Shown here: positions 1 through 6,000 of the stretch, piece after piece
How positions within the stretch are numbered: position 1 is the stretch's first letter
Layout: every line of letters begins with the position of its first letter
Position numbers: made by a program
IMG/VR virus record: IMGVR_UViG_2537561992_000026
Span: 1-6,056 of that record
From: a virus
Taxonomy: Duplodnaviria; Heunggongvirae; Uroviricota; Caudoviricetes
Direction: 5' to 3' (one strand)
Length of the DNA stretch: 6,056 nucleotides

Positions 1-3000
1 CAAAGGACAATCTTAAGTCCACGCAGATGATGAGCGTGATTGACGCCATTGGTGAAGGGCCGATTGAAGGTCCGGTGAAGGGGCTGCAGAGTATTCTGGT
101 GAACAAAACCCCGCTGACGGACACGGACGGTAATCCTGTGATACATGGTGTGACAGCGGTCTGGCGCGCCGGGGAGCAGGAGCAGGCACCGCCGGAAGGT
201 TTTGAGTCCTCCGGCTCTGAAACCGCACTGGGCGTGGAAGTGACGAAGGCAAAGCCGGTGACGCGCACCATTACGTCCGCGAACATTGACCGCCTGCGGG
301 TCACCTTCGGGGTGCAGTCACTGGTGCAGACCACCTCACAGGGTGACCGTAACCCGGCATCCGTCCGCCTGCTGATTCAGCTGCAGCGTAACGGTAACTG
401 GGTGACGGAAAAGGATGTCACCATTAACGGCAAGACCACCTCACAGTTCCTCGCCTCGGTGATTCTGGATAATCTGCCTCCCCGCCCCTTTAACATCCGG
501 ATGGTCAGGGAGACGGCGGACAGCACCACGGACCAGCTGCAGAATAAGACGCTCTGGTCGTCATACACCGAAATCATCGATGTGAAACAGTGCTACCCGA
601 ACACGGCGATTGTGGGGCTGCAGGTGGATGCGGAGCAGTTTGGCGGTCAGCAGATGACGGTGAACTACCATATCCGCGGTCGCATCATCCAGGTACCGTC
701 AAACTATGACCCGGAAAAACGCACGTACAGCGGCATCTGGGACGGCAGCCTGAAACCGGCATACAGCAACAACCCGGCCTGGTGCCTGTGGGACATGCTG
801 ACTCACCCGCGCTACGGCATGGGAAAACGTCTGGGGCGCAGACGTGGACAAATGGGCGCTGTATGCCATTGCGCAGTACTGCGACCAGACGGTCCCGGAT
901 GGTTTCGGGGGCACAGAGCCGCGGATGACCTTTAATGCGTACCTGTCACAACAGCGTAAGGCGTGGGACGTTCTCAGTGATTTCTGCTCGGCGATGCGCT
1001 GTATGCCGGTATGGAACGGCCAGACGCTGACGTTCGTTCAGGACCGCCCGTCGGATGTGGTGTGGCCGTACACCAACTGCGATGTGGTGGTGGATGATAA
1101 CGGCGTGGGGTTTCGCTACAGCTTCAGCGCCCTGAAGGACCGCCACACGGCGGTGGAGGTGAATTACACCGACCCGCAGAACGGCTGGCAGACCTCCACG
1201 GAACTGGTGGAAGACCCGGAAGCCATACTGCGCTACGGGCGCAACCTGCTGAAGATGGATGCGTTCGGTTGCACCAGTCGCGGTCAGGCCCACCGTGCCG
1301 GGCTGTGGGTGATAAAGACCGGACTGCTGGAAACGCAGACGGTGGATTTCACGCTCGGGTCACAGGAGCTGCGTCACACACCCGGTGACATTATTGAAAT
1401 CTGTGATAACGACTATGCCGGGACCATGACCGGCGGACGTATCCTGTCCATCGATGCCGCCAGCCGCACCCTGACACTGGACCGTGAGGTGACCCTGCCG
1501 GAGACAGGTGCCGCCACGGTGAACCTGATTAACGGCAGCGGTAAGCCGGTGAGCGTGGCCATCACTGCACACCCCGCGCCGGACCGGATACAGGTCAGCA
1601 CCCTGCCGGATGGCGTGGAGACATACGGTGTGTGGGGACTCTCCCTGCCGTCACTGCGTCGTCGCCTGTTCCGCTGTGTTTCCATCCGGGAAAACACGGA
1701 CGGTACCTTTGCCATCACGGCAGTGCAGCATGTGCCGGAAAAAGAAGCCATTGTGGATAACGGGGCCAGCTTTGAGCCACTGTCCGGTTCGCTGAACAGC
1801 GTCATCCCGCCGGCAGTACAGCACCTGACGGTGGAGGTGAGCGCGGCTGACGGTCAGTATCTGGCACAGGCGAAATGGGACACGCCGCGGGTGGTGAAGG
1901 GTGTGCGCTTCAGTCTGCGCCTGACCAGCGGAAGCGGAGAAGACAGCCGTCTGGTGACCACCGCCATCACTGCGGATACAGAGCACCGTTTCAGTGGTCT
2001 GCCGCCCGGGGAATACACCCTGACAGTCAGGGCAATTAACAGTTATGGCCAGCAGGGCGAACCGGCCACCACCACGTTCAGGATTAATGCACCTGCGGTA
2101 CCCGCCACGATTGAGCTGACACCGGGCTATTTTCAGATAACAGCGGTCCCGCGTCTTGCGGTGTATGACCCGACGGTACAGTTTGAGTTCTGGTTTTCGG
2201 AGACAAAAATCGCAGACATATCTCAGGTGGAAACCTCTGCCCGTTATCTGGGGACCGGCAGTCAGTGGAGTGTATCCGGCCCGCACATTAAGCCCGGGAA
2301 GGATTTCTGGTTTTACGTGCGCAGCGTCAACCTGGTGGGGAAATCTGCGTTTGTGGATGTCAGCGGGCAGCCCAGCAATGATGGTGAAGGGTATCTGGAA
2401 TTTTTCCGGGAAAAAATAGGAAAACTGCATCTGGCTCAGGGGCTGTGGGAGCTGATAGACAACAGCCAGCTTGCGGATGAGATGGCGGAGATGAAGACCA
2501 CCATCACCGAAACCCGCAATGAAATCACACAGACGGTCAGTAAAACGCTGGAGGACCAGAGCGCCACCATACAGCAGATACAGCGCGTGCAGAAGGACAC
2601 AAATGATGACCTTGCTGCACTTTACATGCTGAAGGTACAGAAAACAAAAAATGGCATACCCTATGTTGCCGGGATTGGAGCGGGGATTGAGGATACTGAT
2701 GGCCAGCCACTGAGCAACATACTGCTGCTGGCTGACCGTATCGCGATGATAAATCCGGAGAGCGGCAACAGCACGCCGTTATTTGTGGCGCAGGGGAATC
2801 AGCTGTTCATGAACGACGTGTTCCTGAAGCGACTGTTTGCGGTGAGTATCACGTCATCCGGCAACCCCCCGACGTTTTCCCTGACGCCGGAAGGGAAGCT
2901 GACAGCCAGGAACGCGGATATCAGCGGAGCAATTACCGCGAATACCGGCACGCTCAATAATGTCACCATTAACGAGAACTGTGTCATCAGAGGGAAACTG

Positions 3001-6000
3001 TCTGCAAACCAGATTGAAGGCGACCTGGTGAAGACGGTGGGGAAAGCCTTTCCCCGGAATAACAGTTATGCCAGCGGGACGGTAACCGTCACAGTTTACG
3101 ATGACCAGGGCTTCGACCGGCAGATTATCATTCCCCCGGTGCTGTTTCGCGGGACGAAACACCAGAATTTCAACAGCCCGAATCAGCAGTCGTACTGGTA
3201 TTCCACCTGTAAGCTGCAGGTGCTGAAGAACGGGGTTGAGATTTTCCATGAACCGGCAACGGATGTCAGCCGGGTGTTCTCATCGGTGATAGATATGCCG
3301 GCAGGGCGGGGTCATGTCACCCTGACGTTTAATGTGTCGTCGGCCGGTGCGAACAACTGGACGCCGACAACGTACATCAGTGATTTACTGGTTGTGGTCA
3401 TGAAAAAATCCAACGGCAGGGATCAGTATCAGCTGACGGTTTATTAACCCGGACGGGCACCTCAGGAGGTGCCTTTTTATGACTGAAAACAAAGAGGTAA
3501 TCATGCGGCATTTATACGCAACGATATTATTGTTTACTACCCTGCTGGCAGGAATTGCCTTTCCTGCACAGGCTGAAAGCGGACACGGTGCATTTTCCGT
3601 GGGATATGCTCAGGTTCACCCGGGCGGCGTACCGGCATTGTCCGGTACCGGTGCGCGTGCAGGTGATTTAAAAGGGATTAATGTGAAATACCGTTATGAG
3701 TTCACGGATCACCTGGGCGGCATTGTCGCGCTGAGTTATGCATCGGTGAAGAAAAGTGACACGATGAAGACGGGTGAAAATACCTTCCATTATGAAAGCC
3801 TGCGCGGTCGTTATGTCAGTCTGATGGCCGGCCCTGTCTGGCAGCTCAGTGAGCGGGTCAGTCTCTATGGCATGGCCGGGATGGCGTACACCCGCTGGTC
3901 TGACAGTGTTCAGGATTACCGGCGTGATGAAGTGAAACCGGGGTATGTGAAGGAGACCACCACCGCCAGTGATGGCCATACTGCGCGTCATCTGTCGCCG
4001 GCCTGGAATGCCGGGATTCAGTTCAGTCCCGTAGAGACGGTGGTTATTGACCTTGCTTATGAAGGCTCCGCCAGTGGCGACTGGCGCACTGACGGCTTCA
4101 TCGTGGGGATCGGCCATAAATTCTGATTAGCCAGGTAACACAGTGTTATGACAGCCCGCCGGTTCAGGCGGGCTTTTTTGTGGGGTGAATATGGCAGTAA
4201 AGATTTCAGGTGTACTGAAAGACGGCACAGGAAAACCGGTAGAGAACTGCACCATTCAACTGAAAGCCAGACGGACCAGCAGCACGGTGGTGGTGAACAC
4301 GGTGGCCTCTGAAAATCCGGATGAAGCCGGTCGTTACAGCATGGACGTTGAGTACGGTCAGTACAGCGTCATTCTGTTGGTGGAAGGATTCCCGCCGTCA
4401 CATGCCGGGACCATCACCGTGTATGAAGATTCTCAACCGGGGACGCTGAATGATTTTCTCGGTGCCATGTCGGAGGATGACGTCCGGCCGGAGGCACTGC
4501 GCCGTTTTGAACTGATGGTGGAAGAAGCGGCGCGTCACGCTGAGGAGGCGAAGAAGAATGCCGGAGAGGCGGAGACGTCAGCGAGGAATGCCGGCATATC
4601 AGCCAGTCAGGCAGAAGAGAGCGCTGCAAATGCTGACACTTCAGCAGGGGAGGCATCGGAGTCAGCCCGGCAGGCGGCAGAAAGTGCAGCCTCAGCAAAG
4701 CAGTCAGAGGATGCGTCCTCGTCCTCGGCTTCTGCGGCCGCTCAAAAAGCCAGTGAGTCATCACAAAGTGCAGCAGAAGCTGAATTGTCAAGAAAGACGG
4801 CAGAAAGTGCAGCCGGTAATGCAGCCAGGGATGCAACGACCGCAACAGAAAAAGCCCGGGAGTCAGCAGAAAGCGCACAGTCAGCGGAACAAAGCTGGAT
4901 AGCGGCGGAAGAAGCCGTAAACCGAATCCCCACAGTGGTGGGGCCACCCGGGCCAAAGGGAGAACCGGGGCCCGCGGGTCCTCAGGGGCCGAAGGGAGAT
5001 AAAGGAGAGCGTGGCGACACCGGTCCTGTCGGGGCAACCGGTGAACGGGGACCGGCAGGTGATGCTGGTCCGGCAGGCCCGCAGGGGCCGAAAGGCGACA
5101 GGGGAGAGCGGGGTAGAGACCGGTCTGACGGGAAATGCAGGTCCACAGGGTCCAGAGGGAGATACCGGTGCGGCAGGCCCGGCAGGCCCGGCAGGCCCAC
5201 AGGGACCGAAAGGAGAAACAGGTGCGGCTGGCCCGGTGGGGGCAACCGGACCTCAGGGACCGAAGGGCGACCCGGGGGAGACACAAATCCGTTTTCGTCT
5301 GGGGCCGGCGAGCATTATTGAGACAAACAGCAATGGCTGGTTCCCGGGTACAGATGGTGCGCTCATCACCGGACTGACCTTTCTTGACCCCAAAGATGCC
5401 ACACAGGTTCAGGGGCTGTTTCAGCATTTGCAGGTCAGGTTTGGTGACGGGCCGTGGCAGGATGTTAAGGGGCTGGATGAAGTGGGCAGTGATACAGGCA
5501 GAACAGGAGAATGACATGAACATACTAAAAAAACTTATAGCAGCGTCTGTGCGGTTGCGGAAAGCATGATGGCCGTGAACACGGGCAGTCGCTTACAGTA
5601 CAACTGCGACTGGGACCGGCAGACATTCTGGAGTCCGATGAGAGTGGCATTATCCCGGAGCAGGACAGGGTAATCACGCAGGTGGTGATACTGGATGCGG
5701 ATAAAAAGCAGATACAGTGCGTGGTAAGACCGCTGAGGTAGCCTGAGTTTAACGGACACTCCTTCCTGAAATAGAATGGCATCAGAAGGAGCTAATAATG
5801 AGCAGAAAAACCCAACGTTACTCTAAAGAGTTCAAAGCCGAAGCTGTCAGAACGGTTCTTGAAAATCAACTTTCGATCAGTGAAGGCGCTTCCCGATTAT
5901 CTCTTCCTGAAGGCACTTTAGGACAATGGGTTACCGCCGCCAGAAAAGGGCTCGGTACTCCTGGTTCCCGCACGGTGGCTGAACTGGAATCTGAAATTCT

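Follow-up and report, generated by a model that had tools for sequence, protein, structure and literature searches.

A BP-4795-type receptor-binding domain in the J gene of an EHEC-type lambdoid prophage, closest among receptor-tested relatives to that of the LamB-using phage 21

Protein J's receptor-binding domain (RBD) sets the range of E. coli strains infected by a long-tailed lambdoid phage. Hantke is said to have reported in 1978 that phage 434 uses OmpC as its receptor. LamB is the native receptor of phage 21, which does not lyse a lamB knockout (10.1101/2023.04.13.536812; PMC11336670). A single substitution in its J, I1025T, adds the use of OmpC, and evolved derivatives with 1 to 11 J mutations rely on differing combinations of LamB, OmpC, and OmpF (PMC11336670). 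OmpC is the receptor of A8 and 1A2 (PMC11338833), as well as of phi330 (PMC12502783), and BamA is that of short-tailed Stx phages, which bind it via an unrelated tail protein (PMC12502783). The SNIPE paper on the PhiR temperate-phage panel describes ManYZ dependence only. For the exact J allele of BP-4795, literature searches returned no receptor experiment, and a review of STEC phages gives no receptor for BP-4795. This allele is common in EHEC, and its receptor thus represents a small but real gap.

The window, that is, the whole stretch of 6,056 nucleotides analyzed here (IMG/VR record IMGVR_UViG_2537561992_000026), is part of an E. coli (EHEC-type) lambdoid prophage with the order J-lom-stf-IS600, and all features lie on the plus strand. 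The order J, lom, stf is that of a lambda-type J in its tail cluster, and in a near-identical locus (L002) the genes from tape measure protein to tail assembly protein are found upstream of J. The window begins approximately 15 codons inside J, the gene for the tip attachment or central tail fiber protein. The N-terminal part of J (positions 1 to 838; frame 3, open reading frame [ORF] 27 to 935) matches Pfam FNIII-A_GpJ (E = 2.7e-42). The central part (839 to 2991; frame 1) matches Phage-tail_3, Ig_J, Ig_J_second, and Phage_Tail_Tip, and comprises hub domains, two Ig/FNIII domains, an alpha-helical shaft, and the beta-prism central straight fiber; it is 60% identical to residues 296 to 1124 of lambda J. 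The RBD occupies positions 2992 to 3436 and matches Ig_GpJ_C (E = 1.3e-34), with all six domains scoring above the Pfam gathering thresholds. Antisense ORFs cross the region (e.g., 2854 to 3249, minus strand), inside strongly conserved coding sequence.

Between J and lom we observe a terminator-like hairpin (3455 to 3482; GGGCACCT-CAGG-AGGTGCCT plus a T run), whose T run falls two bases short of that in relatives, with deletions at 3473 and 3479; at the corresponding site, mEp460 and phage 21 have an annotated rho-independent terminator. It is followed by an intact lom (3503 to 4126), encoding an outer membrane beta-barrel of the Ail/Lom family (Pfam Ail_Lom, E = 9.4e-49; RefSeq annotation in relatives). 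In the side tail fiber gene (stf-like; 4191 to 5514), the Pfam matches are phage_tail_N (the N-terminal domain of prophage tail fibers), Collagen (collagen-like Gly-X-Y repeats), and Phage_fiber_C; one inserted base at 5114 breaks the gene into ORFs 4185 to 5321 and 5011 to 5514. A small gene at 5517 to 5734, which in relatives encodes 89 aa and is annotated as "tail fiber C-terminal domain," has a frameshift at 5539 and is truncated 51 nt short of its stop by IS600. The left end of this IS3-family element (5735 to 6056; orfA start at 5799) matches the copy in NZ_CP074954 at 99.7%.

The earlier note had read J as a single ORF, but the gene is split here between ORF 27 to 935 in frame 3 and ORF 844 to 3447 in frame 1. 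Relative to every close relative, two 1-base deletions at approximately 832 to 838, in GGGGG and GG runs, change ...KRLGAADVDKW... to ...KRLGRRRGQ.... At the other end, an extra A at 3412 leaves the RBD in frame 1 up to 3411 and its last eight authentic codons in frame 2, where the true stop of J is the TGA at 3434 to 3436; all relatives end in ...VVVMKKSTAGISIS* (STAGISIS). The out-of-frame tail at 3412 to 3447 therefore lies outside J proper, and the last 11 residues that the note had quoted as J sequence are a product of the inserted base. The intact J of relatives has 1,158 codons, and the uninterrupted frame of approximately 1,130 to 1,160 codons expected of a lambda-type J is not present in this copy.

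These indels are absent from all 5,426 of 5,426 complete E. coli genomes. The out-of-frame tail is found in no phage record matched to the RBD and in no complete E. coli genome, and an exact 44-mer spanning the insertion at 3412 has 0 matches in 185,579 species-representative genomes. Exact look-ups of the two frameshifted ORF products likewise gave no match, and the best matches to the window among complete E. coli genomes do not exceed 98.6%. Private substitutions cluster in J at 1614 to 1971, which indicates a recombination patch by its sequence pattern. Outside this patch, private indels are about as many as private substitutions, a pattern of sequencing or assembly error rather than of natural decay, and the private single-base indels in J are thus most likely such errors. 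One could also take the locus for a decayed, nonfunctional prophage tail module in which J is not made and the RBD of this copy binds nothing, given the frameshifts in J (832 to 838 and 3412), stf (5114), and the small fiber gene (5539) and the truncation of the last by IS600. We consider this unlikely: every one of the seven or eight indels is private, their ratio to substitutions outside the patch fits sequence error, lom is intact, and inducible phages such as BP-4795 carry this RBD allele in intact form. Decay would, moreover, bear on the status of this copy and not on the identity of the domain. Since J is interrupted by private indels that are most likely errors, the locus shows no functional novelty, and there is nothing new in the locus itself.

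Reconstructed across its breaks, J is 65% identical to lambda J overall, and ORF 844 to 3447 gives 60% identity over 862 aa (BLASTP, E = 0). When identity to lambda is read in 50-residue bins, most N-terminal bins reach 70 to 92%, and the last 144 residues reach 54, 36, and 45%. The most diverged part is the alpha-helical shaft (residues ~801 to 900), with 20 to 38% identity and a 28-residue insertion, so that the earlier description of most of J as close to lambda was overstated. The RBD itself is 44% identical to that of lambda over 156 aligned columns, in agreement with the description of this end as clearly homologous to lambda J yet strongly diverged.

The view of this segment as the receptor-binding, host-range-determining domain is borne out by the Ig_GpJ_C match and by an AF2 model of the exact allele, which lies nearest to gpJ-porin complexes. 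The model has eight strands in an Ig-like sandwich, with pLDDT values of 84 to 96 except in loop L2. The top Foldseek matches are 9wca, 8xck, 8xcj, and 9wcb, each with a probability of 1.00, and the identity to chain 9wcb_F is 78%; phmmer, too, matches the RBD to the lambda gpJ-LamB (8XCJ) and A8 gpJ-OmpC (9WCB) structures. Homology, domain identity, fold, allele identity, and place among known alleles are thus shown for positions 2992 to 3436, the C-terminal RBD of a lambda-type J, whereas its likely receptor is inferred by sequence relationship. The protein is the lambda-type J of a long-tailed phage rather than a short tail spike of the 933W/phi24B type. BamA, which the note had offered as an example receptor next to OmpC, is rejected, as it belongs to the unrelated tail protein of short-tailed Stx phages; the OmpC example stands as plausible, though the nearest tested relative uses LamB.

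A set of 26 phage records, BP-4795 and phage 1717 among them, matches the RBD region at 100% identity over 171 aa, and a near-identical J 3' end is present in about 330 complete E. coli genomes. As judged from these matches, it is the already known BP-4795-type allele and falls within ordinary catalogued allelic variation. Aligning the RBD to J proteins of known receptors, the check proposed in the earlier note, gives 90% identity to phage 21 (LamB), the same value as to 4A7, and 77 to 78% to the OmpC-using phi330 and to PhiR30_1 (both A8-like, with A8 represented by the natural phages matching its supplement DNA, namely, PhiR30_1, 2H10, phi330, and YYZ-2008). PhiR47_2 shows 86.5% identity across the 171-aa query, phage 434 is 43% identical in the RBD, and JLK-2012 is 63% identical and 1A2-like, an equation based on reading translated fragments only.

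Near-identity to lambda at the LamB-contacting loops, the pattern named in the note as contrary to its proposal, is not seen: L1 to L4 all differ in sequence, and L1 and L2 also differ in length. However, phage 21 likewise lacks lambda's loops yet uses LamB, so loop divergence does not exclude LamB binding. The rule that an RBD diverged from lambda does not use LamB fails on the same case, since lambda and phage 21 share LamB at 45% RBD identity, whereas phage 21 and A8/phi330 differ in receptor at 82%; divergence alone thus shows no new receptor. As these cases demonstrate, sequence identity predicts the receptor only poorly in this domain family, and the lesson for method is that percent identity to lambda does not predict which porin is used.

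Our best guess ranks LamB first among the candidate receptors, followed by OmpC. The BP-4795-type RBD forms one clade with phage 21 (LamB) and A8/phi330 (OmpC) and is closest within it to phage 21, which makes LamB its most likely receptor, with a probability of roughly 50%. Phage 21 and A8 differ at 26 sites; the window agrees with phage 21 at 19 of these and with A8 at 2, and at the other 5 it has a residue found in neither. The RBD would act as an Ig-like beta-sandwich, trimeric at the end of the central tail fiber, whose four distal loops (L1 to L4) would enter a trimeric outer membrane porin, and this binding would lead to tail opening. Across the family, variability is highest in these loops (1.3 to 1.8 bits versus 0 to 0.8 in the top loops). 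The differences from phage 21, mainly in porin-facing loops (approximately 8 of 15 in or beside L1 to L4 by alignment reading, 5 by the segment table), would adapt the RBD to certain porin variants, and OmpC may come within reach after only a few mutations.

That the BP-4795-type RBD instead binds OmpC, like A8/phi330 and 1A2, is possible, though we would not favor it; the guess of a receptor other than LamB would then have been right. The allele shares 77 to 78% RBD identity with two OmpC alleles, those of the A8 chimera (PMC11338833; PDB 9WCB) and phi330 (PMC12502783), and both it and the phi330 allele occur in long-tailed Stx phages of EHEC. In addition, OmpC is the receptor for three (A8, 1A2, and 434) of the five E. 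coli J-RBD types that have been tested. The position of I1025, where one change opens OmpC to phage 21 (PMC11336670), is occupied in the window by Leu, as in the OmpC-using 1A2/JLK-2012 type; however, Ile to Leu is conservative, unlike the destabilizing I1025T. Also at odds with OmpC are the LamB specificity of the nearest tested relative, phage 21, and the count of 19 versus 2 at the discriminating sites, including the whole L3 region PATDVSR.

Several observations call for caution about LamB. Within the clade, a divergence of 18% (phage 21 versus A8) is accompanied by a change of receptor, and I1025T alone gives phage 21 OmpC, with Leu at this position in the window. Loop L2 is identical in phage 21 and A8, and the window departs from both at three L2 positions. 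The J of the LamB-using phage 21 is the GenBank sequence OL657228, with I1025 and V1026 present; compared with GenBank, the LamB-tested laboratory phage carries E1071K in L2, a position at which the window has Gln.

We consider it highly unlikely that the allele binds a third receptor (for instance, another porin such as OmpF) or has a native dual specificity for LamB and OmpC. Phage 21 derivatives do reach LamB, OmpC, and OmpF after 1 to 11 J mutations (PMC11336670), and the window has residues in L2, L3, and L4 shared by neither phage 21 nor A8. Nevertheless, the only receptors known for natural J proteins of this clade are LamB and OmpC, the laboratory multireceptor variants are destabilized, with nothing in the sequence to suggest the same here, and just 15 differences separate the window from phage 21. 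A broader version, in which the BP-4795-type RBD would have a specificity of its own, whether a porin beyond LamB and OmpC, both of these, or particular EHEC porin variants only, the last because of its unique L2, L3, and L4 residues, seems quite improbable as well. If true, the allele would constitute a host-range class of its own in the spread of Shiga toxin genes. Whichever porin is used, with LamB as the leading candidate, the BP-4795-type RBD is found in a large fraction of the long-tailed Stx1/Stx2 phages and governs which strains can gain stx1 or stx2 from BP-4795/1717-type phages. Knowledge of its receptor would be useful for the design of gpJ chimeras against non-O157 STEC.

Among known systems, the closest are BP-4795 (NC_004813, ORF72), 1717 (NC_011357), and many Stx1a/Stx2a phages of O26, O145, and O157, all with a 100% identical RBD. 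The J of BP-4795 is 97% identical over its whole length, and BP-4795/1717-type loci share the order J, lom, tail fiber, IS and carry type III secretion system (T3SS) effector genes downstream; the window copy differs in its private frameshifts and the patch at 1614 to 1971. The J of phage 21 (OL657228, CPT_21_21) and those of the wastewater lambdoid phages 4A7, 1H12, and the Lambda_ev series, whose RBDs are of the identical type, belong to the same RBD clade. Phage 21 shares with the window the L2 motif, the L3 region PATDVSR, and the C terminus STAGISIS, but differs by 15 RBD substitutions, including Ile versus Leu in the window at 1025, and its N-terminal 830 residues are lambda-like, whereas those of the window are not. 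The A8 gpJ chimera of Brodel et al. 2024 (PDB 9WCA in the closed state and 9WCB in the open state with EDL933 OmpC) and phi330 (PV189401) agree with the window in clade, length, and L2 loop type. Both are OmpC users, however, and differ from it at approximately 33 RBD positions, including L1, with NQSTTDAQG in place of HEPATDVSR in L3 and AGQGT in place of AGRGH in a top loop. Phage 434/mEp460-type RBDs share domain family and architecture, but at 43% identity have longer L1 and L2 loops and the C terminus ASGISIR. Finally, the lambda gpJ RBD (residues ~985 to 1132; PDB 8XCJ with LamB) is placed at the end of the same multidomain protein and shares the PF12421 family, the Ig-like fold, and the four distal loops, but is only 44% identical to the RBD described here.

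The window covers the tail end of an E. coli lambdoid prophage, holding most of the tip attachment protein gene J (starting about 15 codons into the gene), followed in order by lom, the side tail fibre gene stf with its collagen-like repeats, a small tail-fibre-associated gene whose 3' part is cut by IS600 at 5735, and the left end of that element (5735-6056), which begins TGAGGTAGCC... A comparison with 5,426 complete E. coli genomes gave as best matches prophages from EHEC-type strains of human and bovine origin, with NleG, NleC, and EspW effector genes downstream; no genome exceeds 98.6% identity to the window. 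In stf, long Gly-X-Y repeats (Pfam Collagen; 4940-5250) lie between a conserved N-terminal domain and Phage_fiber_C, and their length differs in the closest genomes. A hairpin resembling a terminator, complete with T run, lies in the J-lom spacer (3455-3482); a rho-independent terminator is annotated at the equivalent position in mEp460 and phage 21. IS600 interrupts the small fibre gene, which encodes a tail-fibre C-terminal domain, 51 nt ahead of its stop, while in the closest genomes it lies 335-440 bp further downstream, within an nleG gene; the window copy has therefore either lost DNA next to the element or received the element at another site.

In a comparison with four close relatives, seven or eight single-base indels are private to this copy: those at 832/837 and 3412 in J, 3473/3479 in the J-lom spacer, 5114 in stf, 5539 in the small fibre gene, and 6047 in IS600. 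J, stf, and the small fibre gene are broken by them, and this may reflect real pseudogenisation. However, outside a patch at 1614-1971 their number roughly equals that of the private substitutions (approximately seven), which suggests that sequencing or assembly error is a better fit than natural decay. The indels at 832/837, 3412, and 3473/3479 are absent from all 5,426 complete genomes, and in the two segments tested gaps at the indels are the sole differences between the window and its best genome matches. The 1614-1971 patch, in the Ig/FNIII part of J, contains 14 clustered substitutions absent from the four close relatives and resembles a short stretch acquired by recombination from a different J allele. 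The viable phage phi330 likewise has a split J in its deposited sequence (PV189401), with overlapping ORFs 579-929 and 866-3994 (locus 579-3994), probably through a sequencing error in that record.

In every relative, J ends in ...VVVMKKSTAGISIS followed by the stop, and one additional A at 3412 accounts for the altered C terminus in the window, the true stop being 3434-3436. Of the C-terminal peptide quoted in the earlier note, from the receptor-binding domain (RBD; 2992-3436), the last 11 residues are therefore out of frame. The frame-1 ORF 844-3447 shows 60% identity to lambda J residues 296-1124; after frame repair guided by close relatives, J spans 1,144 amino acids within the window and is 65% identical to lambda J. 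That note had described J as tracking lambda closely through most of its length, up to the last ~150 residues, which these identities do not bear out. In 50-residue bins, identity is 70 to 92% across most N-terminal bins, yet it falls to 20 to 38% at residues ~801-900, the alpha-helical shaft, which also carries 28 inserted residues. Over the final 144 residues the values are 54, 36, and 45%, so the C-terminal domain is indeed homologous and strongly diverged (44% over the RBD) without being the most diverged part. The shaft, at ~2455-2630, is 56 to 62% identical to that of phage 21. A QLFMND motif (~2800-2815) retains the Phe that corresponds to F924 of lambda J. That residue is reported to trigger the Gifsy-1 abortive-infection nuclease HepS, and Gifsy prophages have Ile in its place (2026 Nature, PMC13043305).

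Pfam assigns the RBD to Ig_GpJ_C, described as [quoted passage not shown], at E=1.3e-34. An AlphaFold2 model of database protein P0017, an identical allele with the correct C terminus, is a confident eight-stranded sandwich with pLDDT of 84 to 96 except in the L2 loop. Its top PDB matches by structure and sequence are gpJ713 of the A8 chimera, closed (9WCA) and open with EDL933 OmpC (9WCB; RBD 78% identical to chain 9wcb_F), and lambda gpJ713, closed (8XCK) and open with LamB (8XCJ). In lambda, entry of the four bottom loops L1-L4 into the LamB trimer opens the tail (Ge and Wang, PMC11101478). In a 40-member alignment, the four loops on this side of the model vary most, with mean entropy of 1.3 to 1.8 bits versus 0 to 0.8 bits in the opposite loops and linker. 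The window RBD is an allele already catalogued, and the domain is well understood: two of its sister alleles have been solved in complex with their porins.

The divergence from lambda had been read as suggesting a receptor other than LamB, a rule that proves unsound. The RBDs of lambda and phage 21, both LamB users, share 45% identity, whereas those of phage 21 (LamB) and A8 (OmpC) share 82%, so divergence from lambda is no reliable guide. BamA is ruled out as the receptor, as it belongs to short-tailed Stx phages with an unrelated tail protein (PMC12502783).

Phage 21 natively uses LamB: a lamB knockout was not lysed before J acquired I1025T, which adds OmpC, further mutations adding OmpF (10.1101/2023.04.13.536812; PMC11336670). 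We confirmed the LamB-tested J as that of OL657228, with I and V at residues 1025-1026; its published 94% nucleotide identity to lambda holds only for the first 2.5 kb. The Meyer laboratory stock differs from OL657228 by G18903A, mapped here to J E1071K, which falls in porin-facing loop L2, where the window has Gln; this is a caveat on how far the LamB assignment transfers to natural alleles. OmpC is the receptor of the A8 and 1A2 chimeras (PMC11338833) and, by knockout and complementation, of phi330 (PMC12502783). The A8 supplement DNA matches PhiR30_1, 2H10, phi330, and YYZ-2008.

The allele is that of BP-4795 (100% over 156 aligned columns, the basis of the phage-to-phage RBD identities here). 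It recurs unchanged over 171 amino acids in 26 phage records, among them BP-4795, phage 1717, and numerous Stx1a/Stx2a phages, and ~330 complete E. coli genomes have a near-identical 3' end. Our literature searches found no experimental receptor assignment for it, a small and fillable gap. Among RBDs with assigned receptors, its sequence is nearest phage 21 (90%, as is 4A7), and of the 26 sites separating phage 21 from A8 it agrees with phage 21 at 19, with A8 at 2, and with neither at 5. We therefore rank LamB first among its candidate receptors, at about even odds (roughly 0.5). OmpC, used by the A8-like phi330 and PhiR30_1 (77 to 78%) and the 1A2-like JLK-2012 (63%), comes second as a tentative but serious candidate, and another or a dual receptor is improbable. 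The window differs from phage 21 at 15 RBD sites, ~8 of them within or bordering L1-L4 on reading the alignment (N176; T207, Q210, P215; H238, E239; A270, Y280) and 5 inside the loops as delimited in our segment table; Leu occupies the I1025 position. More distant are lambda itself (44%; LamB) and 434 and mEp460 (both 43%); for 434, Hantke in 1978 is reported to have assigned OmpC.
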